53,455 nucleotides of DNA from positions 1 to 53,455 of the forward strand of contig CAZJJW010000002.1 of NCBI GenBank assembly GCA_964546425.1. The letters run 5' to 3'. The DNA is from an uncultured Candidatus Saccharibacteria bacterium. Lineage in GTDB: Bacteria > Patescibacteriota > Minisyncoccia > Phycocordibacterales > JACOZG01. The position numbers and the translations under genes are program-made. Shown here piece after piece: positions 7,364 through 32,665 of the stretch (positions within the stretch are counted from its first letter, which is position 1; every line of letters begins with the position of its first letter). Under the pieces are notes generated by a model, which saw nothing but the letters and a program-made list of their open reading frames with translations, was not told the DNA's origin and did no database searches.

Positions 7364-7751
7364 GCACAAAGCAACAAAGTATCTTATTTCCGGCGGCGCG
7401 GCCACGGCGGTCAATTTAGGCACCGTCTACGTGCTCACCGACTGGTTCTCCGTTTATTATCTCATCTCGTCGGTGGTCGGTTTTGTCCTGGCGATTTGCG
7501 TCAGTTTCACCCTACAAAAATTCTGGACCTTTGAAAACCATTCTCGAGATTTTATTCACTGGCAGGCGCTTATTTTTCTAACCACGGCGCTAACGGGTCT
7601 CATGCTGAATACGATTTTGGTCTACTCACTGGTGCAATACTTAAGTCAGCATTATTTACTAGCCCAAATTTTAAGCGGGGTAGTCATTGCGATCCTGAAT
7701 TTTTTCACCTACCAAAAATTGATTTTCCGTTCAACTATTAAACTGCCATGA
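7350..7751 (+). CDS. GtrA-family small membrane protein (polyprenyl-phosphate-sugar handling)
   Basis: Start moved to ATG 7350 (MNLLKHKATKYLISGGAATAVNLGTVYVLTDWF), 14-nt overlap with the upstream gene. About 133 aa with four hydrophobic helices, typical of GtrA. Confidence 0.75.
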   Translation: MNLLKHKATKYLISGGAATAVNLGTVYVLTDWFSVYYLISSVVGFVLAICVSFTLQKFWTFENHSRDFIHWQALIFLTTALTGLMLNTILVYSLVQYLSQHYLLAQILSGVVIAILNFFTYQKLIFRSTIKLP

Positions 7752-19019: not shown

Positions 19020-20282
19020 ATGAGCGTAATCATCGAAATAAAAAATATCTCTAAATGTTACTCAATCAATCGGTCAAATGAGTACTATACCGCCCTGCGC
19101 GATGTTCTAACGAATATCTTTAAGTCGCCATGGCGGTTTCTCTCAACTAAAGTTCGCGAAGTCGCCGGCTATAACAAGAAAGATATTTTTTGGGCATTAA
19201 AAAACATCAATTTCACGGTCGAGAAGGGTGAGATCGTCGGTATCATTGGTCCTAATGGCGCCGGCAAGTCTACTTTGCTTAAGATTCTCAATCGCATTAC
19301 CGAACCGACCTCGGGCGAAATAACAATTCACGGCAAGATATCATCATTGCTTGAAGTCGGTACCGGTTTTCATCCGGAGTTAACAGGTCGAGAAAACATA
19401 TTTTTCTCTGGAGCTATCTTGGGAATGAAACGGCGCGAGATTGTCCGCAAATTTAATGACATCGTTAAATTTGCCGAGATGGAGCAATTCATTGACACGC
19501 CAGTCAAACGTTATTCTTCCGGTATGCACGTGCGACTAGCCTTTTCGGTGGCTGTCCATATGGAGCCGGACATTCTTTTAATTGATGAGGTTTTGGCGGT
19601 GGGGGATATTAGCTTTCAGAAAAAATGCTTGGAGAAAATTCACGAAGTAGCAAGAAAAGACGACCGGACGATCATCTTTGTTAGCCATAATCTTGATGCG
19701 GTTCAGAATTTGTGCGAACGGTCCGTCTATCTAGAGCACGGCGAGGTAAAAAAGATCGGCCCAACCGACCAGGTGATAAAATCCTATCTCGATTGGCAGA
19801 TGATACTTGACCAAAAAGCCGTCCACGAATTTCCCCCGTTGCTAGGTAAGCCCTACCAGATTATCAAGGTGGTAATTAAAAATCAAGATGGAATGCCGCA
19901 GACTAATCTAGAGGCGGGGGAACCTTTTATGGTGGAAGTGACTTACAATACAAAAGTTGATGAGGCCACTTTTTGGCTTAACTTACAATGTGTCAATGAG
20001 CACGGTAACATTATTTTTTTCTCCCGCGATACCGACCGTAATCCAGAACTGATGACCCGACGCAGCAAGGGTCGCCATGTTTCCACTTTCACCTTCCCGG
20101 CAAATCAAAATGTCTCACTCAATAATGGGCGCTACTTTTTAACCATCCGAATCCACCAGGACCCAGATACTGAAGTTACGGTGCCGATTAAGATTGAGGA
20201 CACAAGGGGTCAATTCGGTGGCTTCCCTGGAGTGGTACTCGTCGGTCAAGCTTGGCATAATAACGAAAAATTATCACTATGA
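19020..20282 (+). CDS. wzt: Polysaccharide export ABC ATPase with C-terminal glycan-binding-type domain (Wzt/TagH family)
   Basis: Walker A GPNGAGKST, signature YSSGM, Walker B LLIDEVLAVGD. An extra ~160-aa beta-rich C-terminal domain follows, as in Wzt proteins that recognise chain-terminal residues. Confidence 0.85.
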   Translation: MSVIIEIKNISKCYSINRSNEYYTALRDVLTNIFKSPWRFLSTKVREVAGYNKKDIFWALKNINFTVEKGEIVGIIGPNGAGKSTLLKILNRITEPTSGEITIHGKISSLLEVGTGFHPELTGRENIFFSGAILGMKRREIVRKFNDIVKFAEMEQFIDTPVKRYSSGMHVRLAFSVAVHMEPDILLIDEVLAVGDISFQKKCLEKIHEVARKDDRTIIFVSHNLDAVQNLCERSVYLEHGEVKKIGPTDQVIKSYLDWQMILDQKAVHEFPPLLGKPYQIIKVVIKNQDGMPQTNLEAGEPFMVEVTYNTKVDEATFWLNLQCVNEHGNIIFFSRDTDRNPELMTRRSKGRHVSTFTFPANQNVSLNNGRYFLTIRIHQDPDTEVTVPIKIEDTRGQFGGFPGVVLVGQAWHNNEKLSL

Positions 20283-21043
20283 AAATCTTTGGTTTTGTCG
20301 CGGTCAGGACTTATTCCAGCAGATTGCCAGGCAAGATGCTCGCTACCATCCGGGGCAAAAGAGTAATCGAGCATGACATCGAGAGGGCCAAAACGATTGG
20401 TGGGCTTGATGGTTTGGTGGTTTGTACCTCGCTGGGAAAAGAAGACGATGTGTTAGAAGAAATTGCGAACAAGCAGGGGGTGTTTTGTTTTCGGGGTAGT
20501 CTCGAAGACAAACTAGCGAGATTCCTTGGGGCCGCGGACAAATTTGGAGCCGACTATTTTGTCAACATTGATGGCGATGACCCGTTTTGCGATCCGGACC
20601 TAGTGGAACAAGCAATCAGGCAGATCAAAGCAGAATCCTGTGATGTTATTAAGTCACCTGACGGTCTGGTTTGCGGCGCTTTCACCTTTTTAATCAGTGT
20701 GGCCGCGCTCCGCCAAGTTTGTGAGATGAAAAACACGACCGATACCGAAATGTACGAGGTTTATTTTTTAGAAAACGGTCGTTTCAATGTTAAGGACTTG
20801 AAGGTTACCGAGCCAATCTATTTTAACGACCGGGTACGTCTCACTCTTGACTACCAAGAAGATTTAGATTTTTTCAAGCGCGTTTTTGATGAATTGGAAA
20901 TGGACTCGAATACGTTACCCTTGCGCCAGATTATGACTTTGCTCAAACAAAAGCCGGAAATCGCCACCATCAACTTCTCCCGCCATAAGGATTATGTTGC
21001 TAAACGGGAGTTGATGCGTAAAAAGACCAAAATTAAAAATTAA
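20279..21043 (+). CDS. Cytidylyltransferase (SpsF/NeuA-like, acylneuraminate cytidylyltransferase family)
   Basis: N-terminal AVRTYSSRLPGKML (the R..S.RLP.K signature of this family). ATGA overlap with wzt. Confidence 0.7.
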   Translation: MKIFGFVAVRTYSSRLPGKMLATIRGKRVIEHDIERAKTIGGLDGLVVCTSLGKEDDVLEEIANKQGVFCFRGSLEDKLARFLGAADKFGADYFVNIDGDDPFCDPDLVEQAIRQIKAESCDVIKSPDGLVCGAFTFLISVAALRQVCEMKNTTDTEMYEVYFLENGRFNVKDLKVTEPIYFNDRVRLTLDYQEDLDFFKRVFDELEMDSNTLPLRQIMTLLKQKPEIATINFSRHKDYVAKRELMRKKTKIKN

Positions 21044-21044
21044 T

Positions 21045-22283
21045 ATGAAAAACAGTAATAGTTGGCGTTTTCGAGGCAATGAACTCAAATATGTTAAAGA
21101 GGTTTTAGATTCCGGTTTCGGTAGCTCAACGATTGGTACGATGAACCAGCGCTTTGAAGCGGCTTTTGCCAAACGTTTTGGCGTCAAGTATGCCGTGGTT
21201 TCCAACTCGGGCACGGCTACTCTCCATCAGGCCTTGGTGGCATTCGGGGTTGGGCCAGGAGATGAAGTCATTGTGCCAGCTCTCACGGTAGTGATGTGTG
21301 GTTATGCGGTCATCCACGCGGGGGCCAAGCCAGTCTTTGCCGATGTTTTGCCAGACACTTTCCTGATTGATCCGAAAGATATTGAACGGAAAATAACCAA
21401 GAAGACTAAAGCTGTCATGCCAGTTCACTTGTATGGTCAGGTCTGTGACATGGAAGCGATTATGAAGATTGCCAAAAAACACCACCTGTTTGTCGTGGAA
21501 GATTGCGCCCAGTGTTTCCTGGGTACTGATGGCCAAGGACAAATCGGCGGCACGATTGGCCATGTGGGCAGTTTCAGTCTGGAGAATTCCAAGCACATTT
21601 CGACCGGTGATGGTGGTATTTTAATCACCAATGATGAAACTTTGGCTGAACGGATGCGCAAATTTGGCGGCATGGGCTTCAAGAGCATTGGCGCAATCAG
21701 CGGCCAAGTTAAGAAGAACAAAGATGTTTTCCAAGATCCAAAATATTTGCGACACACGACCTTTGGCTTTAACTATCGTTTAAGTGCTATTTGTGGTGCG
21801 ATTGGTTTGGCCCAGGTTGAGAAAATTGACTATTTAGTTAAAAAGCGCCAAGCCATCGCCGCAAAATATCTCCTGGCTCTTCGTGGTTGTGATTGGCTCA
21901 TCCCTCAATACGTGCCGAAAGGTTATGCAAATACCTACTATACTTTTGCGGCGCGTTACGAAGGAGAACAGAAAAAAGGTGTCAGCTGGTATGACTTTCG
22001 CAAGAAGTTTATGGAATATGGTGGAGATGGTATTTATGCCGCTTGGGCGCTAGTCTACAATGAGCCCATCATGCGTTTAATTGACGAGAAAGGAGCCTTC
22101 TTCCCTGACTTGCCCGGCCAAGCTCGATCATTTAAGGGTTATCTGCCTAAAAATATCAACTGCCCGCAAGCCGAAAAATTACAGCCGCTCTTGATGCAAT
22201 TTACCGCCAATCAAGGGATTGAACAAGACATGAACGTACAGATGAATGCCCTCAAAAGAACAATCAAATTTTTCGGCCGATAA
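21045..22283 (+). CDS. DegT/DnrJ/EryC1/StrS-family PLP-dependent sugar aminotransferase
   Basis: VVSNSGTATLHQAL, HLYGQVCDM, FSLENSKHISTGDGG (Lys for PLP). Confidence 0.85.
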   Translation: MKNSNSWRFRGNELKYVKEVLDSGFGSSTIGTMNQRFEAAFAKRFGVKYAVVSNSGTATLHQALVAFGVGPGDEVIVPALTVVMCGYAVIHAGAKPVFADVLPDTFLIDPKDIERKITKKTKAVMPVHLYGQVCDMEAIMKIAKKHHLFVVEDCAQCFLGTDGQGQIGGTIGHVGSFSLENSKHISTGDGGILITNDETLAERMRKFGGMGFKSIGAISGQVKKNKDVFQDPKYLRHTTFGFNYRLSAICGAIGLAQVEKIDYLVKKRQAIAAKYLLALRGCDWLIPQYVPKGYANTYYTFAARYEGEQKKGVSWYDFRKKFMEYGGDGIYAAWALVYNEPIMRLIDEKGAFFPDLPGQARSFKGYLPKNINCPQAEKLQPLLMQFTANQGIEQDMNVQMNALKRTIKFFGR

Positions 22284-22312
22284 AAAATGCCCCGAAAGTT
22301 TCCTCTCGGGGC
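22282..22312 (-). terminator. Rho-independent terminator of the B-A1 unit
   Basis: Stem gccccga/tcggggc (22289-22312). On the minus strand it is followed by A+T6 (22282-22288). Lies 28 nt past the A1 stop; the T-run overlaps the DegT stop codon. Confidence 0.65.
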
Positions 22313-22340
22313 GTAAAAGAACAATTCCTCATTCCATAGG

Positions 22341-22667
22341 TTAGGCATGGGTCGTCTTGCGAGGCCGGCGGTGACGCGGCCGACCCTTCGTGACCTTTCG
22401 CGACGGTGGCACAATGAACGCCGCAGGGTTGATTGGTCGACCGAGCAACCTGCCAGCCTCCTGGAGACCACTTTCGTACTCGCCCATTTGAACCGTAAAC
22501 TTAAGGGTGGCCGACACTTCGGGCAACTCCTCCTTGATGCGCAGTAGCAAAGACACAAGGTAGGCTTCCGGATCAGCCTTGACCCTTTTCACCAGCTCGT
22601 CGGTTGAGTACCGCGATGACAATCTGAACACCTCCGCGACCAGCTTGCCAATGGCGGGTTCCAACAT
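22341..22667 (-). CDS. Uncharacterised small protein A1 (108 aa), paralogue of 28017..28310
   Basis: Strong RBS GAAAGGAGAG (22680-22671) 3 nt before the ATG. Shares DPEAYLVS.L.RIKE.LP.VS.TL with A2. Pro/Arg/Lys-rich C-terminal tail. No family recognised. Confidence 0.7.
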   Translation of the reverse strand: MLEPAIGKLVAEVFRLSSRYSTDELVKRVKADPEAYLVSLLLRIKEELPEVSATLKFTVQMGEYESGLQEAGRLLGRPINPAAFIVPPSRKVTKGRPRHRRPRKTTHA

Positions 22668-22685
22668 ATGCTCTCCTTTCGGATT

Positions 22686-23333
22686 TTAGGATAAGAAACT
22701 CGGATTGTTCGCCGCGCGGCGAATCACATTGAGATGCTGCTCGAAAATACTGGTGACCCAGATTTCCTCCTCGTAGAGCTCCTCGGCCAAGACATTCTCG
22801 GCGAACTGCCGAACCAAGTAGCCGAAGACGAACAAGGCCCGGTCGTCAAACCATTGATGAAGTTCCTGGAGAACCGGGCGGTAATATTGTTCGACGAAAG
22901 CTTGTTTCTTTGCGGGCCAGGGCGCCTGACTTGCCAGAAACAGCTTTTCTTCTGGTTTGGACCAGAGCTTGCGCTCATTGATTAAAGTGTGCCGGCGAAT
23001 CGCCCAAAAGATCAGACAGCGCAGAACATCGAGACAATCCGCGGCGCGAGCTACTTCCTCGAACGCACTTTTGAACCGAAACATAATCCGGACGACTTGA
23101 GTAGCCTCCTCGTACATTTTGCCCTGCTTGTCGAAGAACACTCCATCGACGCTGTACATTGACCAGCCTCCGAAGGGCGATTTATACATGTCGATACGTG
23201 CCAGCGCCTCTTCGACCGAGGGCAGGGTATGTCGGCGATGCAGACGGGTGTAATCTTGAGGGTCAAAGAGCGCTGGATAGATTCTGAATTCCTCCATGAA
23301 AGGCTCGATATATTTCCTCACATACTTCTTCAC
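22686..23333 (-). CDS. Uncharacterised protein B (215 aa)
   Basis: ORF with GTG start. The N-terminal region is homologous to the remnant at 27799..27986, and the homology continues upstream of the GTG. No motif recognised. Confidence 0.6.
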   Translation of the reverse strand: MKKYVRKYIEPFMEEFRIYPALFDPQDYTRLHRRHTLPSVEEALARIDMYKSPFGGWSMYSVDGVFFDKQGKMYEEATQVVRIMFRFKSAFEEVARAADCLDVLRCLIFWAIRRHTLINERKLWSKPEEKLFLASQAPWPAKKQAFVEQYYRPVLQELHQWFDDRALFVFGYLVRQFAENVLAEELYEEEIWVTSIFEQHLNVIRRAANNPSFLS

Positions 23334-23395
23334 GGGCTCTTCGTTGTGGCCAAAACGCAGGGCATCGAAAATCGTGCCCTGATGAGCCCTCGCTA

Positions 23396-23424
23396 TTTAT
23401 ACACTAATGTTGCAAATAAAGCAA
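23396..23424 (-). promoter_or_regulatory. Candidate sigma70-like promoter of the B-A1 unit
   Basis: Minus strand TTGCTT (23424-23419), 17-nt spacer, TATAAA (23401-23396), immediately downstream of the rSAM terminator. Confidence 0.4.
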
Positions 23425-23444
23425 GGCAGGGGAAGTTGGATAAG

Positions 23445-23478
23445 ATAAAAAGACACCACCCAATCCGTTGGGTGGTGT
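23445..23478 (-). terminator. Rho-independent terminator of the radical-SAM gene
   Basis: 11-bp stem acaccacccaa/ttgggtggtgt with loop tccg (23453-23478), followed on the minus strand by CTTTTTAT. Confidence 0.7.
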
Positions 23479-23499
23479 GTGGTATTGAACCAAAGAGCT

Positions 23500-25155
23500 C
23501 TACATATCGAGAATCCCTTCGATATTTCCTCGGTCGACATGCTCGCGAGCCTGGAGGAACTGATCTTCCGACATCGCCCCGAAGTTGAGCGGTCGGCCGT
23601 CACGGTCGTGCATCACTTTGGTAGCATCGTCGAGCTCAAGGACATAATCGAGCATGGCGTTATCAGCCACCGGGCTGCCGCAGGCATCGAAGGAGAGACC
23701 GAAATTGGCCCGAAGTTGTTGCTGAACTCGGGGAGCTCGCAACGCCTCGGTGCCGGGATAGGCAGTGAAGACGAAGATCTTCTGGTTGACTGCCTCTCTC
23801 GACGTAGCCGTCTCCATTTGCCAGAGGATGAAGCCGACAGTCGTCTTCAAATCCTCCAGGCGCTCACCCGGATAGGCCATAATCCAGGTGCAGTTGCCGT
23901 GAATGCCGGCGGCCTGACAGTTTTGGATCCCCTTCACCATGGTGGTGGGGAAGTCGAAGCCATTAATGCGGCTTAGCTGGTTTGTCTTGCTACCTCGCGG
24001 CCTCAAGATGAAACCACCCTTGCCCATTTCTTCGAGCACATGCTCTGAAGCACTCTCGGCGCCGAAGCCGATATAGATGCAACCGGCCTTGGCCATGTCG
24101 AAGACTCGATCGTCTGACGCCTCATCGAGGCGAGTGTGGGTGCCCCAACGTAAACCGCCAAGCGGCTTGAATGCCTCCGGCAAACAAGCGATGTGTGTGG
24201 GGTTGACCGCGAAGTTGTCATCAACGAAACCAAGGAAATCAATCCCGTAGCGTCGTTGTAGCCAGGACGCTTCCTCGGCCAACTTCTCCGGCGATCGGAG
24301 ATCGTACAGGCGACTACCGGTGGCTCCCCGATGACAGAACTTGCAAGCATAGGGGCAACCCCAGGTGGCGACGGTGTTCATGCTTCGGGTCATCTGGAAT
24401 GGCGTAGCCGAACTGTTGTTGGCCGCCAAGCCCCAGATGGGGACTTGGATATACTGCTCCAGAATCGAGTTGCCGAGTACATCCTGATGTAACAGGTCCC
24501 AAGCCGGAAAAGGTAGGATATCCAAATCCGGCGGTCGACTGCCTTCATATAAGAAGCGCAGACGACCGTTCTGTTCGCCCAAGCATTGAGGCAGGTGCGA
24601 CATGTCGCGGTGCTGATGAAGCCTGGCTTCGAGGACATCCTTGCCCAAGAGCAAGATCACGTCGTCACCTTCCGAACGAACTACGGCATCAAGTTCCGGG
24701 ATCCAATTGAAGAGTCCCGTTTTGATATCGGTGGCTAAGCCCCCGCCACTAATGATGAAAGCGTCGGGGACCAACTGGCGGCAGGTACTGACCACGAACT
24801 GTTGCCACCGCAGAGTGGTGATCATCCCCGAGAGGGCGATGATATCCGGCTCGCCGTGCTGGTTGATGTGCCGTTCCAACAGGGAGCTGGTCTCATCATA
24901 GGTCAACCAGCGACCGTTGGGTTTATCTTTGACGGCCTCGTCCTCTAGGCGATATGCGTTGAGGTCAAGGATGCTGACTTCGGCGCCGTACATTCGAGTG
25001 CGAGATGCCAAGAGCCCTGGGCCCAGCGGGGCATTATTGGGTTTGGCCGACTCGCGGAGCGGCATATTGAGGTAGAGGATTTTTAAACCCTCCAGCGCGT
25101 GATAATCAAGCGCTGACACGACGTCGACAGGCATTACTGCTAGGGTACTAGTCAT
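23500..25155 (-). CDS. B12-binding-domain radical SAM enzyme (class B)
   Basis: N-terminal cobalamin-binding-like Rossmann layout (DIIALSGMITTLRWQQF...FIISGGGLAT), then the cluster motif WGCPYACKFCH (CxxxCxxC). SD AGGAG lies 7 nt before the ATG. Confidence 0.85.
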   Translation of the reverse strand: MTSTLAVMPVDVVSALDYHALEGLKILYLNMPLRESAKPNNAPLGPGLLASRTRMYGAEVSILDLNAYRLEDEAVKDKPNGRWLTYDETSSLLERHINQHGEPDIIALSGMITTLRWQQFVVSTCRQLVPDAFIISGGGLATDIKTGLFNWIPELDAVVRSEGDDVILLLGKDVLEARLHQHRDMSHLPQCLGEQNGRLRFLYEGSRPPDLDILPFPAWDLLHQDVLGNSILEQYIQVPIWGLAANNSSATPFQMTRSMNTVATWGCPYACKFCHRGATGSRLYDLRSPEKLAEEASWLQRRYGIDFLGFVDDNFAVNPTHIACLPEAFKPLGGLRWGTHTRLDEASDDRVFDMAKAGCIYIGFGAESASEHVLEEMGKGGFILRPRGSKTNQLSRINGFDFPTTMVKGIQNCQAAGIHGNCTWIMAYPGERLEDLKTTVGFILWQMETATSREAVNQKIFVFTAYPGTEALRAPRVQQQLRANFGLSFDACGSPVADNAMLDYVLELDDATKVMHDRDGRPLNFGAMSEDQFLQAREHVDRGNIEGILDM

Positions 25156-25243
25156 CCGATTTCTCCTATGTTATATTGACCGAATGAGATTCTGTTTCAA
25201 AGAACACTATTCCCATTATACTATAACTTAGTACGAAAATCAA

Positions 25244-25933
25244 ATGTTACCAAAAAAGCGGCTAGTAATTACCGGTAGTGAAGGTTTAATTGGTACCAAA
25301 CTGGTAGAGTATTTTAGCCCACACTATGAGGTTTTACGTCTTGATTTACAATTAGGCCATGATTTTACTGATGAGCCGTTCGTGGCCCAGTGGTTTAAGG
25401 AGAACCGCAATCTTTATGGCATTATCATTTGCCACGCCCATAATCCAATTGCTGCCGCTAACACCAGCAAAATTGAGCCGATCGATATGCCGCTTGAGGA
25501 GTTGCGGGATTTTCTCGAAGTTAATACCGTGAGCGCTTTCAATGTTTGCCGCCATTTCATTAAAAATAATAAAACTGGGGTAATTATAAATATCAGTTCT
25601 CTCTACGGTTCAGTCTCACCCAAGCATATGCTCTACACCGATTTTACCAAACCGATTGGTTACTCAATTTCTAAAGCTGGTGTCGTGATTATGTCTAAGT
25701 ATCTGGCAACATATTATGCTCCCGACATCAGGATTAACACGGTGGTGCTCGGGGGGGTTGCTGGCCGGGTTTATGATCAGGGCTTTGTCGATAAATATTC
25801 CGCCCACACCCCGATGAAGCGTTTGATGAATCTTGACGAGGTACCGCCAGTATTTGAATTTTTGTTGAATGAGAAATCCTCCTATGTTACCGGTGCCGAA
25901 TTCTACGTTGATGGTGGTTGGACCGCGTGGTAA
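25244..25933 (+). CDS. Short-chain dehydrogenase/reductase (classical SDR)
   Basis: VITGSEGLIG cofactor motif, catalytic YSISKAG (YxxxK), NISS. Confidence 0.85.
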   Translation: MLPKKRLVITGSEGLIGTKLVEYFSPHYEVLRLDLQLGHDFTDEPFVAQWFKENRNLYGIIICHAHNPIAAANTSKIEPIDMPLEELRDFLEVNTVSAFNVCRHFIKNNKTGVIINISSLYGSVSPKHMLYTDFTKPIGYSISKAGVVIMSKYLATYYAPDIRINTVVLGGVAGRVYDQGFVDKYSAHTPMKRLMNLDEVPPVFEFLLNEKSSYVTGAEFYVDGGWTAW

Positions 25934-25936
25934 TAA

Positions 25937-26515
25937 TTAGGCGGGCGGGAAGTCGTTTTCGTTAATGCCGCGGGCATCAAGTACCATCTCGGCAAACTCG
26001 CGGATGGCGCCAAAGCCGCCGGGTCGCTTGGTGATAATGTGGGCCAGCGGTCTGACTGTCCGGGTGGCATTGGCGGGGCAAACGATAATTCCTTCATTTT
26101 GGATGGCGAGCATGGCGTCACGGTCGTTGATATCATCACCCATGTAAATGGTGTCGACAAAAGTTAGCTTATTTTCGGCTAGCCATGATCTAATGGTTTC
26201 CAGTTTTGCCCCCTTGCCCCCCTGTTTGGTGAATAATTCTACCTTCGGCCAACGCCCACTTTTGGCGGATGTTAAAGTGTTGAATCGGTCAACGATGCCG
26301 CCCAACGGCTCACCCTCACCAGAAACAAAAACGATTTTTATGCCGATTTCGCGGAGGAAGGAGATTCCTTGTCCGTCTTGATGACCGCGCGATTTCGAGA
26401 TGATCACCGCGCCATCGGCTAGCGTTGAGCGAGTTTCTTGTCCGTCAAAGAAGACGCCGTCGGCATCGAGAAACAAAACTTTAAAGTTTTTCAGTTTTTC
26501 CTGGATATTTTGCAT
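25937..26515 (-). CDS. KdsC-family HAD phosphatase (ulosonate-phosphate phosphatase-like)
   Basis: FLDADGVFFDG (DxDGxxxD) and GDDINDRDAM. Start placed at ATG 26515 (MQNIQEKLKNFKVLFLD), because the track's TTG 26545 lies inside the upstream terminator T-run. Confidence 0.8.
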   Translation of the reverse strand: MQNIQEKLKNFKVLFLDADGVFFDGQETRSTLADGAVIISKSRGHQDGQGISFLREIGIKIVFVSGEGEPLGGIVDRFNTLTSAKSGRWPKVELFTKQGGKGAKLETIRSWLAENKLTFVDTIYMGDDINDRDAMLAIQNEGIIVCPANATRTVRPLAHIITKRPGGFGAIREFAEMVLDARGINENDFPPA

Positions 26516-26540
26516 CGTCTTATTATCGCTAAAAAATTGA

Positions 26541-26577
26541 AACAAGAAAAGCCCCAGGCGACTTGTCGCCTGGGGCT
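26541..26577 (-). terminator. Rho-independent terminator of gene C
   Basis: 10-bp stem gccccaggcg/cgcctggggc (26551-26576), followed on the minus strand by TTTTCTTGTT. Confidence 0.7.
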
Positions 26578-26601
26578 ACTGAATTTCTCTTGCTCCATCA
26601 G

Positions 26602-27651
26602 CTATTTCTCAACCAGACCATGGATGGCTTCGGCGCCCGCCTCCGGTCGGAATTTGGCGCTGGCTGCCCAGCGCCGACTGTTCTTGTCATACCGCTCCCA
26701 ATCCAGCCAACTGAGATGTTCGGGCTCAGTGAGGCGGGGGATTACACCCATAGCAACAAGCGGGTAAGCGCTTAACCCGCATTCTTCTTGATAGAGTCGT
26801 TTTGCCATCGGCCCCCAGACCGAGATTGCTCGCCGGCCATGATGAAGCGCGATCCGGAGTGGCGTCGTGAAGGCGCCGACGGTGATATCGCACATTCGGG
26901 CCAAAGCGTCAGTGCCCAGTTGTCCGCGATGAGTAAAGGACAAGCCCTCAGTCAATCGGGCAAACTCGGGTAGGACATGGGCATACTGCGGGTATTGGTC
27001 CGCGTCGGCATACTTGGGGTGCCAGAGGCTGTAGTAACAGACGAACTGACTCGGATCATTCTCGAGCCGTAGGCTGTTTGCCACCAGTCTGACTATTTCG
27101 AGCACGTTGTCTGGGTGATCCGGGACCACCATGATTGAGGTTTTACCAGCCGTAGCCGTATCGAAGGCCGCCAAGGCCTCTTTAGCCGTAGCGGGTACGC
27201 TGGTGTCCACTGTCGAGGCAATGTCGCCAACAATGGCACGCCGCCGGGCGATATTTACGGTCATCATGAAGTCGTCCATCACCAGCGTCAGATTGGGGAC
27301 GAAGCCTTGAAGCCGCGACAAGGCATTCCAGGTATCTTCGCAAGTCACGACTGGGATTTCGAGCGCCCGGGCAGTCCCAGCGAAATCGAGTTCCCAGTTG
27401 ATCGGGGAAGAGCAGCCGACGACTACCACCTGTGGGCGTTCTGTAACCACCACAGATGGGCGTTGTGGTTGGAGTTGATCACTGCCACGGACAATGATGG
27501 TCAGGCCGGATTCCTCCGCCAAACCTATCGCTTTGCCCTCGACAGCCAACTTCACCTCGTGGCCCTGTTCGGCCAGGAATTTGAGTACCGGCAGGCCTAT
27601 CTTGGCCGCCATAATGTCTCGGAAGACACCCAGAACCTTAATTCGTTCCAC
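26602..27651 (-). CDS. Uncharacterised protein C (349 aa), probably GT-B fold (WecB/NeuC-like N-terminal pattern)
   Basis: GTG start preceded by GGAAAGGCGG. IKVLGVFRDIMAAKIGLPVLKFL resembles [18 protein letters not shown] of UDP-GlcNAc 2-epimerases, but the catalytic boxes are not conserved. The N-terminus is duplicated at 28436..28567. Confidence 0.5.
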   Translation of the reverse strand: MERIKVLGVFRDIMAAKIGLPVLKFLAEQGHEVKLAVEGKAIGLAEESGLTIIVRGSDQLQPQRPSVVVTERPQVVVVGCSSPINWELDFAGTARALEIPVVTCEDTWNALSRLQGFVPNLTLVMDDFMMTVNIARRRAIVGDIASTVDTSVPATAKEALAAFDTATAGKTSIMVVPDHPDNVLEIVRLVANSLRLENDPSQFVCYYSLWHPKYADADQYPQYAHVLPEFARLTEGLSFTHRGQLGTDALARMCDITVGAFTTPLRIALHHGRRAISVWGPMAKRLYQEECGLSAYPLVAMGVIPRLTEPEHLSWLDWERYDKNSRRWAASAKFRPEAGAEAIHGLVEK

Positions 27652-27798
27652 TACCGCACCGCCTTTCCAGATAAAAAGAACTGATTAGAGCCGACACTAA
27701 CCGTAGCATTTTAAGTCTAAGTTGTCAATTGACGTTCAATTATTTTTCTGCTACAACTGGACCTGATTTAGACCTTTCACAATATAAGGAGATCAGGT

Positions 27799-27986
27799 AT
27801 GCCACCCACGGGAACAAGGTACCTCTTTGCTCGAAACGAGCGGCCTATCAAGGCACGATCTTCAATGCCTTACGCTATGGTCACGACGAGAATAAGGTAA
27901 AAGAGTATTTACGAAAGAATGTGCGAGCTTTAGCGGATCGAGATGTATCAGTCACCATTCATGGGCTGGTCAACTTACAGCAATGA
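27799..27986 (+). pseudogene. Frameshifted, truncated remnant of a B paralogue (B')
   Basis: AAGGAG (27786-27791) plus ATG 27799 opens a frame that stops at 27900. The B-homologous residues AAYQGTIFNALRYGHDENKVKEYLRKNV lie in the neighbouring frame (track ORF 27729..27986, which has no ATG). About 180 codons of B are missing. Confidence 0.5.
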
Positions 27987-28016
27987 CCCCCAACTTTTCT
28001 GAAAGGAGAGAAAGCC

Positions 28017-28310
28017 ATGCTTTCTAAACCGGTCGAACAGCTCCTCCTGGAGGTAGCTGCCCATTACGGGGACAGAACAGAGCAAGTGGCCAAAAAGGAC
28101 CCGGAGGCGTATTTGGTATCAATCCTTATGCGAATCAAGGAGGATCTGCCAGTCGTGTCGTCAACCTTGATGGATACGATTGAGATGGCAGACTATGACG
28201 GCCATCTCAACGAGGCGAAGCAATTGCTCAGCCCCTCCGCCAAAAGCCCGCCACAGAAGAGGCCGAGAAGTGTTTCCAAAGTGAGACCTAAAAGCCTATC
28301 GCGACGATGA
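28017..28310 (+). CDS. Uncharacterised small protein A2 (97 aa), paralogue of 22341..22667
   Basis: Identical RBS GAAAGGAGAG (28001-28010). Conserved body DPEAYLVSILMRIKEDLPVVSSTL, with a different Pro/Lys/Arg/Ser-rich tail. Confidence 0.7.
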   Translation: MLSKPVEQLLLEVAAHYGDRTEQVAKKDPEAYLVSILMRIKEDLPVVSSTLMDTIEMADYDGHLNEAKQLLSPSAKSPPQKRPRSVSKVRPKSLSRR

Positions 28311-28329
28311 TGTGCTCCACCTGTTCTTT

Positions 28330-28360
28330 GGAGCCCTTTCTTCTGGAGGGGCTCTTTTTT
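28330..28360 (+). terminator. Rho-independent terminator after A2
   Basis: Stem ggagccc/ggggctc (with a G-G mismatch at the first position) followed by T6 (28355-28360). Confidence 0.75.
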
Positions 28361-28378
28361 ATTATTCCAGCGGGATAG

Positions 28379-28411
28379 AAAAAGCCGGTGGGTCAAGCTT
28401 GACCCACCGGC
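28379..28411 (-). terminator. Rho-independent terminator after the C' stub (face-to-face with the A2 terminator)
   Basis: Perfect palindrome gccggtgggtc-aagctt-gacccaccggc (28384-28411), followed on the minus strand by T5. Confidence 0.7.
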
Positions 28412-28435
28412 TACTACTGAAAACGGAAATCGCCC

Positions 28436-28567
28436 TCACTTGACTCGGCGAACACGGCGCAGTTTCTTGGCCGCTACCACCTCGCCCCCTTGATCCGAGA
28501 AGAGTTTGAGAATGGGCAGGCCCATCCGGGCCGCCATAATGTCTCGGAACACACCTAAGATTCTCAT
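28436..28567 (-). pseudogene. 43-codon stub homologous to the N-terminus of protein C (C')
   Basis: MRILGVFRDIMAARMGLPILKLFSDQGGEV... versus C MERIKVLGVFRDIMAAKIGLPVLKFLAEQGHEV. Shared 5' UTR GAAAGGCGGTG. A 21-nt identical core ggccgccataatgtctcggaa occurs at 27604-27624 and 28529-28549. Too short for the ORF track. Confidence 0.6.
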
Positions 28568-28660
28568 CCGTACACCGCCTTTCTGGCCTTGGGCCTATTT
28601 GTCAAGTAGGGGTGTAAGAAATGGACAGTCGGGAGGTTATATATTAATATAGCTGTCATC

Positions 28661-29539
28661 GTGAAAAAGTCGCGGACCAAAGTGGATTTCAATCGGCTGA
28701 CCCAGCCGTATTTAATTGCCGAGATCGGCATTAATCACAATGGCGATTTGCAGATTGCTAAAAAGTTGATCTCGGCGGCCTTCGCCTGTTCCTGGGATTG
28801 TGTCAAGTTCCAGAAACGCAATCCCGATAAGGCGGTGCCGGAACATCAGAAAAATGTGCCGCGCGAGACACCCTGGGGCAAGATGACTTATCTTAAATAT
28901 AAACACCGGATCGAGTTTGACAAAAAGCATTATGATGAGATCCAAAAGTATTGCCGGATGAAGCCGATCGACTGGGCCGTTTCCGTCTGGGATTTAGATA
29001 GCCTCGACTTTATGGTTAAAAGTTATCGCGACGACTTGCCATTTTTGAAAATTCCCTCGGCCTTGCTGACTAATGATGAGCTTCTTGTCAAAACCGCTAA
29101 AACTGGTATCCCGGTAATTGTTTCTACTGGTATGAGTACGCTCAAAGAAATTGACCACGCCGTCGAGTTGCTAAAGAAGTATGCTTCCCAATTTGTGGTC
29201 ATGCATTGCAATTCTTCTTATCCGGCTAATCTGTTAGAGCTTAACCTGCGGATGATTCCGATGCTAAAGAAGCGCTATAATTGCATTGTCGGTTACAGCG
29301 GCCACGAATTTGGTTTGGATTCAACAACGGTAGCGGTGGCGCTCGGCGCGCAAGTGGTTGAACGTCATATTACGCTTGACCACACGATGTGGGGCACCGA
29401 CCAATCTGCAAGTGTTGAGCCGCAGGGGATGGACAAGCTCTACAAGCAGATCAGAACCGTCGCCGGAATGCTCGGTGACGGCAAGAAACGAGTTTACGAC
29501 AGCGAGTTGGCGGTCCGCAAAAAGTTAAGGGGGTATTAA
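28661..29539 (+). CDS. NeuB/SpsE-family ulosonic acid synthase (PEP-condensing), short form without SAF domain
   Basis: PYLIAEIGINHNGDLQIAKKLI, KFQ, VSTGMSTLKEID, HCNSSYP, GYSGHE, ERHITLD. Ends at 292 aa, right after the TIM barrel. GTG start. Confidence 0.85.
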   Translation: MKKSRTKVDFNRLTQPYLIAEIGINHNGDLQIAKKLISAAFACSWDCVKFQKRNPDKAVPEHQKNVPRETPWGKMTYLKYKHRIEFDKKHYDEIQKYCRMKPIDWAVSVWDLDSLDFMVKSYRDDLPFLKIPSALLTNDELLVKTAKTGIPVIVSTGMSTLKEIDHAVELLKKYASQFVVMHCNSSYPANLLELNLRMIPMLKKRYNCIVGYSGHEFGLDSTTVAVALGAQVVERHITLDHTMWGTDQSASVEPQGMDKLYKQIRTVAGMLGDGKKRVYDSELAVRKKLRGY

Positions 29540-29540
29540 T

Positions 29541-30722
29541 ATGCGCCTTTCCCCAGACGATCCGACTTCAGATAAGCTCGTTGATTGTCCGACCCCGTAT
29601 TACCATTTGCTTGAGCATCAGCCGGTCGACACAAAGCCCAGAATGGCGATTTTTTTAGGTAATGACTTCAAGAACATGTCTAAAACTCTCGACCGCGAGG
29701 CTTATATTGAGCAGACAAATCAGTGTTTGGATTACATGAGACGAGAATGCCGAGGTTGCAGTTTATACTACAAACCTCACCCCAATGAGACCGACGAGTA
29801 TTCTTTTTTTGACCTTGATGGGTTTCAGGTGATTGGTAAGGAGGATAACGAGATTGCCGAAATATTTTTTTGGAAAAATCTCTCCTCTATAAAATACGTT
29901 TTTTCGATCGCTTCCACGGCAGTTTGGTCGGCTTACAATTTGGGACTGAATGCCTATACCTTCATCCGACCGGTTGAGGCGGTAATCGGCAAAGATATCG
30001 CTAGCGCCGGTGACTATTTTGATGAATTGCCAAGTTCGTTCTTTATCACTAATTTTGATCAGCCGCTTCGGGAGAACCGAAAAATCCTAGTCCCAGACCA
30101 CTTGGCCGAAGGCCGTTTTCTTAGAGACTTGGAATCAGGAAATGACGTTTGGTTTTTGGTCGGCGATCCTGGTATGTTGGTGATCTACATTTCTTTCGTT
30201 AATCTAATCAAGAAAAATTTTCCCCATAAAAAAATCAACCTAATTCTTCCCCGGCACCATCGCTGGGGACGAGTTAAAGAGAAACATTATCGAAGTTACT
30301 TTAATCAAATAGTTAGTTTTCCTCGTAGCTTGTATTCCTTAAAGCCCAGTCGATTCATCGAAATTATTAAGACAATTTTGGCGATAAAGAGATTTAAGCT
30401 GCCCCCTCAAGACGTTTTACTCCTGTTTGCCAACAGTAATTTAGTTGAGAATTGTTTCGTGTCATACTTCCCGAATAAAAAAATCGCAGTTCAATTCAAA
30501 GATTACTTCGAGATAAACTATGGACTAAAGGAATCAGAGATTCTCCGGGGAGAAAAATTGAAGGCCAGATTCACCAGTATAATGTTCAATCTTATAATTG
30601 AACCAATTTTGGGTTTATACCGAAGTATATATCTAGAATATGGTGACGGCCGGGTGATTAATATCGTGCGATTTTTAAAACCGGCCACCAAAATTTATGA
30701 CCGGATTTATTTGTTGTGTTGA
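29541..30722 (+). CDS. Uncharacterised protein P1 with YKPHP motif, paralogue of 34912..36093; possible CMP/CDP-sugar-dependent transferase
   Basis: Shares many blocks with P2: IF.GNDF, TN.CLDY.RR.C.GC.L.Y.PHP.E, IKY.FS..ST, INLI..RHHRW, YSLKP, ENCF.SY, EP.LGL. SD AAGGGGG lies 7 nt upstream. The function is inference only. Confidence 0.55.
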   Translation: MRLSPDDPTSDKLVDCPTPYYHLLEHQPVDTKPRMAIFLGNDFKNMSKTLDREAYIEQTNQCLDYMRRECRGCSLYYKPHPNETDEYSFFDLDGFQVIGKEDNEIAEIFFWKNLSSIKYVFSIASTAVWSAYNLGLNAYTFIRPVEAVIGKDIASAGDYFDELPSSFFITNFDQPLRENRKILVPDHLAEGRFLRDLESGNDVWFLVGDPGMLVIYISFVNLIKKNFPHKKINLILPRHHRWGRVKEKHYRSYFNQIVSFPRSLYSLKPSRFIEIIKTILAIKRFKLPPQDVLLLFANSNLVENCFVSYFPNKKIAVQFKDYFEINYGLKESEILRGEKLKARFTSIMFNLIIEPILGLYRSIYLEYGDGRVINIVRFLKPATKIYDRIYLLC

Positions 30723-30746
30723 CGAATACCGAGATATTACTATACT
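30719..30746 (+). promoter_or_regulatory. Sigma70-like promoter upstream of the transketolase gene
   Basis: TTGACG (30719-30724, overlapping the P1 stop), 16-nt spacer, TATACT (30741-30746). The ATG is 14 nt after the -10 box. Confidence 0.5.
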
Positions 30747-30760
30747 TTAAAGTTACATAG

Positions 30761-32665
30761 ATGATCAGTGACTCCCTTACCTATATTCCCCGCGCTGAAG
30801 TTGACCGCCTGCGGAAAAAAATTAAGGACCCAATCCTCCGAGCCTCAATCTTGGCAAATGTCTTTCGCTTAAATGCCTTATCGATGATAATGGAATCGGG
30901 ATCGGGCCACGTGGGATCATCTTTTAGCGCGATGGATATTGTTACTTGGTTGTGGCTGGAAGAAATGCAAAACCCCAATGACAATAAGAAGCGAAATGCT
31001 GATATTTATTTTTCGTCAAAAGGTCATGATGCCCCCGGCTTGTATGCTGTGATGATCGGATTGGGAAAGCTTAAAGAAGCTCTCCGACATCGCCTGCGAA
31101 GGATTGATGGTTTGCCCGGTCATCCTGACGTTCGGACCCCATTTGTGATCACCAATACTGGCGCCCTGGGTATGGGTTTGGCCAAAGCGCGGGGTATGGC
31201 TGGCGCTCGGAGACTGGCTGGAAAAAGTGGACGAATTTTTGTGTTGCTTGGCGACGGGGAACTGCAGGAAGGCCAAAACTGGGAGTCTCTCCAGCCAATT
31301 GCCAACGGAGGATTCTCGGAAATTACGGCGATAATTGATTTCAACAAGATTCAATCGGACACCTATGTCAAAGACACGAGTGACCTTGGAAATTTAGAGG
31401 CAAAATTTAGAGCCTTTGGTTGGGAGGTGTTTAGAATCGACGGCCACAATATGAGAGAAATAAAAGCTGTCCTTCAAAAAACAAAACGCGGTATCGGGAA
31501 ACCAAAAGTGATTATTGCCGACACCATAAAAGGAAAAGAGGTGTCATTTATGGAAAAAGTTGCTTCCGACGGATTCTATAAGTTTCATTCGGGGGCGCCG
31601 TTGCCGGAGCTCTATAAAAAGGCCGCCGAGGAAATTATAAATAGCGTAGAATCAGCCTTGCGTCCATTAGGGCTTGAGGTCGCGATTGAGCAAAAAGTTC
31701 CGATTCCTAAGCGAGCAACCTCGCCTCGGGCGGAGAGACTGATCGTTGCCCATGGGGATGAACTGGTAAAACTGGCCCAAAAGCATCCTAAAATTGTAGC
31801 GTTTGATGCAGACTTGGTGCTGGATACGGGACTAGTGCCCTACTCGAAAACCATTCCCCAGCGGTATGTCCAAGCCGGAATTGCCGAGCAGTACATGACC
31901 TCCATGGCTGGCGGTTACGCCTTGAAAGGGATGTTGCCCGTTGTTCACTCGTTTGAATGTTTTCTTTCCACTCATGCCAATGCTCAAATCTATAACAATG
32001 CGACCGAGCGGACTAAGATTATTTATGTTGGTTCGCTGGCCGGGCTTCTGCCCGCTTCCCCCGGCCACTCTCACCAGGCGCTCCGCGGCATTTCTCTGGT
32101 CGGCTCCATTCCGGGACTGACGATGATTCAGCCAGCCAATGAAGCAGAAGCCCGGCTGGCAATTCGCTTTGCGGTGCTCCAAAACAAAGGCAGTTCTTAT
32201 ATTCGTTTGGTCACTCTTCCCATTGAATTACCATATGTTCTGCCAAGGGGCTACGTCTTAAAAAGAGGGCAGGGTGTAAAAATCCGCTCGGGAAAAGAGG
32301 CCGCGATTGTTGCTTATGGCCCGACCTTGCTCAAAGAGACCTATCTGGCCGCTGAAATTTTAGAACAAGCGGGATTACGGGTGGCGGTTTTTAATATGCC
32401 ATGGCTTAATACCATTGATGAAGCGTGGTTTAAGAAAACTTTCGCTAAGTTTAAAAAGATTGTTACTCTTGACGACCACTTTGTCTCCCAGGGCCTTGGG
32501 GTCCAGATTGCGGCAATGATCACCCGAGGCAGATTGAAATCGAGAATCCTATGTCTGGGGATTAGAGAAATTCCCGCCTGCGGCACACCAGCCGAGGTGC
32601 TCGCCTACCATCAACTCGATGCGATGAGTCTTTCCAAACAAATCAGATCTTTTTTGCATGATTGA
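30761..32665 (+). CDS. Transketolase-family ThDP enzyme (N- and C-terminal halves fused)
   Basis: SGHVGSSFSAMDIV, ThDP motif GDGELQEGQNWES, pyrimidine-binding GIAEQYMTSMAGGYA. 634 aa. Confidence 0.85.
   Translation: MISDSLTYIPRAEVDRLRKKIKDPILRASILANVFRLNALSMIMESGSGHVGSSFSAMDIVTWLWLEEMQNPNDNKKRNADIYFSSKGHDAPGLYAVMIGLGKLKEALRHRLRRIDGLPGHPDVRTPFVITNTGALGMGLAKARGMAGARRLAGKSGRIFVLLGDGELQEGQNWESLQPIANGGFSEITAIIDFNKIQSDTYVKDTSDLGNLEAKFRAFGWEVFRIDGHNMREIKAVLQKTKRGIGKPKVIIADTIKGKEVSFMEKVASDGFYKFHSGAPLPELYKKAAEEIINSVESALRPLGLEVAIEQKVPIPKRATSPRAERLIVAHGDELVKLAQKHPKIVAFDADLVLDTGLVPYSKTIPQRYVQAGIAEQYMTSMAGGYALKGMLPVVHSFECFLSTHANAQIYNNATERTKIIYVGSLAGLLPASPGHSHQALRGISLVGSIPGLTMIQPANEAEARLAIRFAVLQNKGSSYIRLVTLPIELPYVLPRGYVLKRGQGVKIRSGKEAAIVAYGPTLLKETYLAAEILEQAGLRVAVFNMPWLNTIDEAWFKKTFAKFKKIVTLDDHFVSQGLGVQIAAMITRGRLKSRILCLGIREIPACGTPAEVLAYHQLDAMSLSKQIRSFLHD

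Follow-up and report, generated by a model that had tools for sequence, protein, structure and literature searches.

The window analysed here is a 53,455-nt stretch (contig CAZJJW010000002.1, positions 1 to 53,455) of the genome of an uncultured Candidatus Saccharibacteria bacterium, a member of the Patescibacteria or candidate phyla radiation (CPR), and it carries a surface-glycan locus anchored by a NeuB-family synthase gene. Embedded in this locus are two copies of a small two-gene cassette, B–A, that stand in opposite orientation, together with a short repeat, C', of the 5' end of a third gene, C. An earlier note, made from the sequence alone, had read these repeats as an old inverted duplication of one gene set (A, B and C) framing a B12-binding radical S-adenosylmethionine gene (rSAM). 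Here, we find that the locus is best read as a mosaic glycan cluster in which two old copies of an orphan CPR cassette have been decaying independently and C bears a probable recombination scar. Positions 22000-29000 are 100% identical across three independent assemblies, and the arrangement is thus not an assembly artefact. Throughout, labels of the form L### denote comparison loci from other genomes, and those of the form P#### denote homologs of B. The two cassettes comprise the following features:

22289-22312 (−): intrinsic terminator closing the left B–A1 cassette, a 10-bp stem followed by a T run
22341-22667 (−): A1, intact, 108 aa with a basic C-terminal tail; an open reading frame (ORF) that aligns with A-like ORFs 3' of B elsewhere
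22686-23387 (−): left B, 5'-truncated, family residues ~25-260; 59% identical to P0005 over 233 aa
23396-23424 (−): relic promoter, TTGCTTTATTTGCAACATTAGTGTATAAA, recognized by local alignment to L011 9920-9948
27652-27798 (no strand): AT-rich divergent intergenic region between C and B', GC content 0.39, presumed to hold the promoters of both
27799-28000 (+): B' pseudogene remnant, three pieces in three frames (27799-27843, 27834-27932, 27934-27999)
28017-28310 (+): A2, intact, 97 aa, with its ribosome-binding site (RBS) at 28001-28010; identified as an ORF and by alignment to the A family
28330-28355 (+): terminator closing the right B'–A2 cassette, an 11-bp stem followed by a T run

Similarity between the two arms

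A1 and A2 are true paralogs, as the earlier note had proposed: they share 43% identity over 101 aa (E=9e-20), and both are preceded by the same RBS, GAAAGGAGAG, at 22680-22671 for A1 and 28001-28010 for A2. The two arms are likewise significantly similar as DNA. Blastn pairs three stretches of the left arm with the right, of 119 nt (67% identity), 53 nt (77%) and 48 nt (77%), at E 2e-6 to 8e-6, and tblastx of the reverse-complemented left arm against the right arm gives a summed E=6e-29, matching the A genes at 44% over 70 aa and recovering two pieces of B (63% and 59% over 27 aa each) that lie in different frames of the right arm. A BLASTP comparison of B with the 27729-27986 ORF gave no match because B' is spread over three frames, and it was tblastx and tblastn that resolved the remnant. 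The mirror symmetry described for the locus holds for A and B, which form an inverted repeat (I1) whose arms are separated by 4735 nt, but not for C and C', which both lie on the minus strand and form a direct repeat (D1). The repeats picked out in the earlier note are real and non-random, and its interpretation of them stands in part; the single A-B-C set does not.

B is damaged in both copies and A is kept

Members of the B family share a conserved N-terminus, M…RYxFxRSERxIFxEIYFPKRAAYQGxIFDALRxGY, and in the family alignment the left B is without the first ~24 of these conserved residues (RYxFxRSERxIFxEIYFPKR). Homology to B in the left arm begins at (R)AHQGTIFDALRFGH, directly past an in-frame TAA at 23399-23397, and no remnant of the missing 24 codons was found upstream in any frame. 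The peptide HQGTIFDALRFGH, by which the two B copies had been matched, directly follows this TAA and lies upstream of GTG 23333, the sole canonical start of left B (ORF 22686-23333, for which NCBI annotates a 203-aa product); with the first ~24 residues missing, the description of left B as intact is wrong. Next to the truncated gene stands the relic promoter, whose alignment to L011 9920-9948 scores 31, against 14.8 ± 2.5 with a maximum of 27 for shuffled sequences. The L011 segment lies 53-81 nt upstream of the L011 B start, and the in-frame TAA of the left arm is itself part of the relic -10 box. The simplest reading is a deletion of ~125 nt that removed the 5' untranslated region, the RBS and codons 1-24; it would begin immediately past the -10 box, reach as far as codon ~24 and have inactivated the left B. 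What is left of the gene is a frame of 233 uninterrupted codons that keeps all 23 family-invariant residues of the remaining part, so that either the deletion happened recently or the gene continues to yield a working, shorter protein from GTG 23333.

The right copy has decayed as well. B' starts at ATG 27799, where MPPTGTRYLFARNER fits the family N-terminus; its frame then changes to KRAAYQGTIFNALRYGHDENKVKEYLRKNVRAL and again to RIEMYQSPFMGWSTYSNDPQLF, after which it meets a stop. It keeps family residues of about 1-15, 25-57 and 89-119 of ~260 (about 70 codons in all). Between and after these segments, about 9, 33 and 140 codons have been deleted, and the last of these deletions ends just short of the A2 RBS. 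B' is therefore a genuine, decayed remnant of a B-type gene, as had been supposed, and the three deletions and the frameshifts would have inactivated it. The proposed reciprocal decay, with one B lost and the other preserved, does not hold, since B is damaged in both copies. In agreement with the earlier description, both A genes are intact, retaining their ORF, their RBS and the conserved residues of the family. The same combination is found a third time in L038, a Staskawiczbacteria metagenome-assembled genome (MAG; 9980-10760), in which B is frameshifted near codon 118, where a sequencing error in the MAG is possible, and the downstream A (75 aa) is intact.

Terminators follow rSAM, A1, A2, C and the C' stub, and each cassette thus forms its own transcription unit. 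The A2 terminator (28330-28355, +) and the hairpin after the C' stub (28383-28412, −) stand back to back, 28 nt apart.

The B–A cassette family

A search with B, extended by its conserved upstream peptide, returned 147 homologs of ~255-265 aa (nearly all 250-270), which carry no Pfam domain and come mostly from MAGs of Parcubacteria, Saccharibacteria and Peregrinibacteria. An exhaustive HMMER profile search found 312 clusters at 50% identity, all of them stand-alone proteins with no fusions, and a scan of GTDB species genomes found 36 loci, a few of them in Gemmataceae, Pyrinomonadaceae and Desulfobacterales. Family members are recognized by the motifs RSERxIFxEIYFPKRAAYQG, SPFxGWSxYxVDGVFF, EEATQVVR and EEIWV. 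Several genomes hold two diverged copies of B, which are 50-78% identical within a genome.

In about 20 of 26 CPR loci, the ORF directly 3' of B is A-like, being 74-113 aa long and bearing the motif PEAxLVSLL; these A proteins are small and helical and often have a Lys/Arg-rich tail. L013 and L018 have a different small ORF in this place. All-against-all clustering of 272 neighbour proteins revealed no recurrent partner of B besides A, and in other loci B is preceded by promoter-like boxes. We conclude that B followed by A is an autonomous bicistronic cassette, found mainly in Patescibacteria and uncharacterised to date. Both copies in the window belong to it: the left B matches P0005 and B' matches three segments of the family, both being truncated, while A1 starts 18 nt after the B stop and A2 lies directly 3' of B'. 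The grouping of A, B and C into one gene set fails on the same survey, since B–A occurs in dozens of other genomes without C or rSAM and the loci that hold C carry neither B nor A.

Contexts of the cassette were surveyed by Pfam profiling of 121 neighbours, together with eight contexts for which Pfam assignments had been precomputed. About half of those examined are glycan or envelope loci, among them a second NeuB locus (L002/L020) and a Glyphos_transf/GT2 locus (L050); the rest are housekeeping surroundings with genes for ribonucleotide reductase (RNR), phosphoglycerate kinase (PGK), ComEC/RecJ or a tRNA synthetase.

Several individual loci add detail. The presumed 5' leader of B contains an element G[TG][TC]C..TTGACA (for example GTTCATTGACA) in 12 of 22 loci, 30-55 nt before the B start and downstream of promoter-like -35/-10 boxes; these loci include L011 (9960-9975), L012, L013, L016, L021, L024, L028 and L038. 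A weak version lies at 27760-27790 of the window, and the left copy has lost the element to its deletion. The element may serve the cassette as an operator or as an RNA element. L029 has its A-like gene (1393-1713, −; 106 aa with a basic tail) upstream of and divergent from B (1864-2658, +), so that the adjacency of the two genes is kept although their order has changed. In L005, a 264-kb Parcubacteria contig, ~1.8 kb without a called gene (6206-8001) lies directly upstream of B, in a non-glycan context of S24 peptidase, IMS polymerase, SRAP and helix-turn-helix genes. In L052, a Peregrinibacteria contig, B is preceded at a distance of 93 nt by a tyrosine recombinase gene (5973-6908; Phage_integrase, 311 aa); this is seen in one locus only, and the enzyme may either be XerC/D in a housekeeping role or hint at the edge of an island.

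Protein C and the C' stub

The third repeated piece belongs to a different gene, and its features are these:

26577-26550 (−): terminator 3' of C, from the terminator scan
26602-27651 (−): C, 349 aa, with a predicted glycosyltransferase B (GT-B) fold (AlphaFold2 and Foldseek); a neighbour of NeuB elsewhere
28412-28383 (−): terminator after the C' stub, a perfect 15/15 hairpin (I12), from the repeat and terminator scans
28436-28583 (−): C' stub, consisting of the RBS GAAAGGCGGTG, 33 C-like codons, 10 unrelated codons and a stop (43 codons, 28436-28567), by alignment to C

C and C' share 20 of 33 residues (E=4e-13) and a common RBS, and C' then continues into unrelated codons and a stop, which bears out its earlier description as a decayed 5' stub of C. 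The DNA identity of ~70% estimated by eye also holds for this pair, which is 70% identical over 99 alignable nt; codon positions 1/2/3 account for 10/5/15 of the differences.

C had been called unplaceable, and it has no Pfam or NCBIfam match at E ≤ 0.1. Its AlphaFold2 model (pLDDT 87.9, pTM 0.85), however, consists of two Rossmann-like halves, and Foldseek matches it in the PDB to SpnP, CalG4, OleD, WecB and MnaA (E 2e-11 to 1e-9, TM 0.55-0.63), that is, to glycosyltransferases and UDP-GlcNAc 2-epimerases, with SpnP, CalG4 and WecB at E of 2e-11 to 6e-10. C is thus predicted to be a divergent GT-B-fold member of an ordinary sugar-pathway superfamily. It shares the two Rossmann-like halves with GT-B nucleotide-sugar enzymes, both the GT1 enzymes (SpnP, CalG4, OleD) and the epimerases (WecB, MnaA, NeuC-like), but at just 9-16% sequence identity, and it falls outside the curated families Epimerase_2, Glyco_transf_28 and GT1. 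GT-B enzymes of the NeuC or PseG type usually stand beside NeuB in nonulosonic acid loci, and C does the same. The family is rare, with 5 homologs among 5.8 billion clusters, and C adjoins NeuB in all its loci (L006-L010, L054), which have neither B nor A.

In L006-L008 and L054, C is divergent from NeuB across a spacer of 96-190 nt. In the window it is the stub that lies 93 nt from NeuB, and C' would thus occupy the ancestral position of C. The interval between stub and full-length C is filled by the stub terminator, the terminator of A2, A2 itself, B' and an AT-rich spacer of 147 nt. This layout, in which the native upstream region with one C 5' end is followed by foreign DNA and then by a second C 5' end joined to the rest of C, would be expected from single-crossover (Campbell-type) integration of a circle carrying a 5' fragment of C. 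It would equally be expected from homology-facilitated illegitimate recombination (HFIR), a replacement in which incoming DNA of a related lineage is joined by homology at one end and illegitimately at the other. Both processes are known in general terms to leave a direct repeat of a 5' end, here the RBS plus ~36 codons, flanking foreign DNA, here ~800 nt, with one repeat a dead stub on the native upstream region and the other on the intact gene; the window differs in that its repeats are just 70% identical and in having no integrase or vector-like sequence. The stub is 70% identical in nucleotide sequence to the C of the window and 68% to that of L054, which comes from a different organism from the same samples, and the two full-length genes are 64% identical. 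Searches of JGI metagenome contigs by protein pattern and by shared 21-mer found no pre-insertion or intermediate allele and no further relatives of C. It is odd that a relic of 43 codons should have a clean terminator of its own, and the hairpin at 28383-28412 may have arrived with the inserted DNA.

The sugar pathway around the cassettes

The remaining genes of the locus, with the rSAM terminator, are as follows:

20279-21043 (+): cytidylyltransferase, from the ORF listing of 19-31 kb, with CTP_transf_3 and KdsB-like matches
21045-22283 (+): DegT aminotransferase, from the ORF listing and by Pfam and NCBIfam
23453-23478 (−): terminator 3' of rSAM, between rSAM and the B–A1 cassette, an 11-bp stem followed by a T run
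23500-25155 (−): rSAM, with PF04055 and PF02310; a pathway gene outside the repeat
25244-25933 (+): short-chain dehydrogenase/reductase (SDR), by Pfam and NCBIfam, a pathway gene
25937-26545 (−): haloacid dehalogenase (HAD) hydrolase, KdsC/KDN-9-P-phosphatase-like, by Pfam and NCBIfam, also a pathway gene; counterparts of the SDR and HAD genes occur in L010, L008 and L054
28661-29539 (+): NeuB-family synthase (PF03102, E=3.4e-72), 77% identical to NeuB of L006 and L008
29541-30722 (+): unannotated gene for a 393-aa protein without a Pfam or NCBIfam family, directly 3' of NeuB

A NeuB-family synthase, a cytidylyltransferase and a DegT aminotransferase are all present, and the window represents a surface-glycan locus of the nonulosonic-acid type in a Patescibacteria/CPR genome, with NeuB as the pathway anchor. 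The HAD protein matches NF058599 and KdsC models at about 1e-16, under the curated cut-offs. No Rfam family and no tRNA was found in the window.

The segment carrying the cassettes had been said to split the sugar pathway. L010, a Patescibacteria locus without B–A, holds counterparts of most genes of the window together, with identities to the window of 66% for the cytidylyltransferase, 71% for DegT, 62% over the full length of rSAM, 43% for C, 36% for the 393-aa protein, 35% for NeuB, 31% for HAD and 30% for SDR. L008 has the order 393-aa gene–NeuB / C / HAD / rSAM, with NeuB, C, HAD and rSAM contiguous and identities to the window of 77% for NeuB, 58% for C and 56% for rSAM. Because rSAM, HAD, C, DegT, the cytidylyltransferase and SDR (the last at ~30%) recur together without B–A, the 22.3-28.4 kb segment leaves the pathway whole, and the two B–A cassettes are the sole additions to the locus.

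The 393-aa protein is kept at the same place in L006-L010 at 30-36% identity and is another conserved, uncharacterised member of the pathway. A NeuB-type locus with a B12-rSAM, a GT-B enzyme, DegT, a CMP-transferase, SDR, HAD and a transketolase-like gene (window 20279-32665; the whole of L010) recurs in Patescibacteria, and its product is probably an unusual nonulosonic sugar, possibly a C-methylated one. Our literature search found no paper linking nonulosonic acids with Patescibacteria, only general papers on horizontal gene transfer and on defence in CPR.

GC content is patchy from gene to gene, at 0.58 for A1, 0.57 for rSAM, 0.58 for C and 0.57 for C', against 0.44 for SDR, 0.41 for the 393-aa gene and 0.44 for wzm/wzt. 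This patchiness is consistent with a mosaic origin of the locus and not diagnostic of it.

Origin of the two copies

Whether the two cassettes descend from one local event can be judged from their nearest relatives. For the A proteins we ranked identities over 76 columns against 21 comparators with a column bootstrap. A1 is nearest to the A of L011 (51%), and A2 to those of L016 (48%) and L038 (47%), with A1 and A2 46% identical to each other in these core columns. The left B is also nearest to L011, whose B is P0005 (59%), and the promoter of the left arm is of the L011 type. For the pieces of B', the best matches are P0031 (76%), P0074 (83%) and P0035 (from L016), and identities to the B of the window are 68% and 75%, which rank 43/113 and 47-49/117. 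Sequence comparison therefore suggests, with moderate support, that the left copy is L011-like and the right copy L016-like, and that they represent two lineages of the family. None of the repeated pieces is clearly the closest relative of its counterpart in the window. This favours either ancient paralogy or separate acquisition over a local inverted duplication, and the earlier reading of the arms as products of such a duplication is not borne out.

On that reading, a single A–B(–C) unit was duplicated locally and inverted around rSAM, and the copies diverged to ~45% at the amino acid level and ~70% at the nucleotide level and decayed differentially. Both cassettes do lie within 6 kb of one locus, their A genes share the GAAAGGAGAG RBS, the 46% identity of A1 and A2 takes second place for A1, and third place for A2, in the ranking of 21 comparators, and the C of the window is narrowly the closest sequence to C' (70% of nucleotides). 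We nevertheless consider a local duplication improbable. The pieces of B' rank the window B far down their lists, and the left A, B and promoter point to the L011 type where B' and A2 point to the L016 type. Further, C and C' are direct rather than inverted repeats, C is never found with B–A elsewhere, and loci that have no B–A conserve the framed genes as part of the pathway.

The two cassettes could also be imagined as the ends of a composite mobile element spanning 22.3-28.4 kb, with B as a new transposase or recombinase, A as a DNA-binding accessory and rSAM, SDR, HAD and C as cargo. The bracketed block has a GC content of 0.50-0.58 against 0.41-0.48 in its flanks (SDR, at 0.44, excepted), several genomes hold two copies of B, B occurs in several phyla, and the basic tail of A could bind DNA. 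GC is uninformative as a marker of horizontal transfer here, since it is as high in the C' stub as in C and is low in SDR. Neither terminal inverted repeats nor target duplications were found at the cassette ends, copies in the same genome share 50-78% identity and are not near-identical, and the predicted fold of B matches no DDE, HUH, serine or tyrosine recombinase. The supposed cargo consists of genes that are syntenic pathway members in loci without B–A, the cassette is stably syntenic in the clade of L014 and L015, and the plasmid, phage and IMG/VR collections contain no copies. We rejected a composite transposon on these grounds (no end repeats, no recombinase fold, diverged copies and syntenic pathway content as cargo) and regard it as very improbable.

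We propose that the locus instead acquired its present form from two separate B–A cassettes in opposite orientation, each with its own promoter and terminator, which would be ancient paralogs or independent acquisitions. B would have been inactivated in each and both A genes retained, and the right cassette, together with a second, equally diverged C 5' end, would have been placed between the stub and the body of C. We are fairly confident of this architectural and evolutionary reading.

Possible functions of the B–A cassette

The claim that A and B belong to no named family stands: searches of A, B and C against Pfam, NCBIfam, PHROGs and PADLOC gave no real matches, and PDB sequence profiles for B and A returned nothing, or designed helical repeats only. 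An AlphaFold2 model of B, built for the homolog P0005 from 49 sequences, is confident (pLDDT 85.8, pTM 0.84) and predicts an α+β protein with three β-hairpins and a 43-residue helix. Foldseek found no match for it in the PDB (best E 0.02, TM ≤ 0.2), and its matches in BFVD were all partial, to phage proteins of ~115 aa whose function is not known. These agree with weak matches of phrog_3543, also of unknown function, to 11 of 49 B members, and we treat both as a lead and not as evidence. Weak Pfam matches of B members to Spherulin4 (7/49, at E ≥ 0.012) and Adenyl_transf (2/49) were judged spurious, because the model is neither a TIM barrel nor a nucleotidyltransferase and Foldseek finds neither fold.

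A evolves much faster than B, judging from loci L014 and L015. These have the same synteny (B at ~9989, A at ~10793) and flanks that are 84-90% identical; B is 83% identical between them and A only 48%, its C-terminal half being essentially unalignable. Together with the loss of B and retention of A in three cases (both window copies and L038), the autonomous operon, the diverged paralogs and the scatter of the family across phyla, this leads us to a tentative best guess that B–A is an effector–partner module of an addiction- or conflict-like kind, similar to toxin–antitoxin (TA) systems. B would be an effector whose loss is tolerated or favoured, and A a fast-evolving retained partner, a neutraliser or regulator that possibly binds nucleic acid through its basic tail.

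Toxin-first type II TA operons, such as those of the higBA and mqsRA type, offer the nearest comparison. Like them, B–A is a compact two-gene operon with its own promoter (a relic in the left copy, promoter-like boxes elsewhere) and terminators, occurs as several diverged paralogs per genome in a scattered distribution and variable chromosomal context, and keeps its small, fast-evolving partner while the larger gene is repeatedly lost. It differs from them in that neither B nor A matches a known toxin or antitoxin in sequence or fold, that B is large (~260 aa), and that B is not found on plasmids or phages and is vertically stable in at least one clade.

A second comparison is with UpxY and UpxZ, paired regulators that head capsular polysaccharide loci in Bacteroides. 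The likeness is one of arrangement, in that small genes again occur as a pair whose paralogs turn up at different surface-glycan loci within the same genome. However, B has no NusG/KOW-like fold match, about half of the B–A copies lie outside glycan loci, and the cassette is terminated separately rather than being the first gene of a glycan operon.

The frequency of glycan and envelope surroundings raises a different reading, in which B is a new sugar- or polymer-modifying enzyme and A its small partner or regulator, and decay reflects the loss of an optional modification. Such contexts are found in the window (twice), L001/L016, L002/L020, L050/L014 with L015, L017 and L018, and L022. B is inherited vertically inside a Glyphos_transf/GT2 locus and diverges there like its neighbours, it is rich in invariant acidic, Arg and aromatic residues as an enzyme might be, and it has not been found on phages or plasmids. 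On the other side, further copies lie among RNR, PGK, ComEC/RecJ and tRNA synthetase genes, no specific glycan gene recurs with B–A, the cassette has its own promoter and terminator and is not integrated into glycan operons, and the predicted fold of B is unlike that of any known carbohydrate-active enzyme. A role as glycan or envelope accessory is in our estimate possible but rather unlikely. Somewhat more doubtful still is that B–A constitutes an undescribed system of two components essentially confined to Patescibacteria, in which B has no fold neighbour in the PDB or BFVD and A neutralises or regulates it; in that case, A might act through the conserved GTTCnTTGACA element of the 5' leader.

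Taken as a whole, the explanation that joins a mosaic locus, two cassette lineages, inactivation of B, a C' scar and an effector–partner function is in our view probably the best one. Several points weigh against parts of it. The left B, with its 233-codon frame and every invariant residue in place, may be made from GTG 23333 and be functional. The lineage split has moderate support, since it rests on short sequences, namely some 70 aa of B' and 76 alignment columns of A. A1 and A2 are also each other's nearest neighbour in 20-23% of column bootstraps and share an identical 10-nt RBS, and a very old local duplication is conceivable. For C and C', we infer the recombination mechanism from the layout. 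As to function, the distant B homologs of Gemmataceae and Pyrinomonadaceae have no A, sequence and fold searches link neither B nor A to known toxin, antitoxin, defence or regulator families, and no B homolog was found on 50,697 INPHARED phage records, 72,556 PLSDB plasmids or 2.9 million IMG/VR contigs. Finally, B in L014 and L015 is inherited vertically at the rate of its neighbours, which fits a housekeeping-like accessory better than a selfish element.

Implications

The apparent mirrored gene set framing rSAM resolves into a mosaic glycan locus, and in this respect our analysis is mostly clean-up: on present evidence, the arrangement reflects mainly ordinary genome mosaicism and neither a special duplicated system nor a new kind of system. 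Three outcomes are of modest value. One is the recurrent Patescibacteria pathway that surrounds the cassettes, with its NeuB, rare GT-B enzyme, B12-rSAM, DegT, CMP-transferase and 393-aa protein. B–A, for its part, is now a delimited orphan family, and the confident predicted fold of B, which has no structural neighbour, makes it a target for work on CPR-specific biology. The threefold occurrence of a damaged B beside a retained A is a testable pattern; if the effector–partner reading is true, this pattern would be the footprint of an addiction or conflict module in a group of bacteria reported to be poor in classical TA and defence systems.

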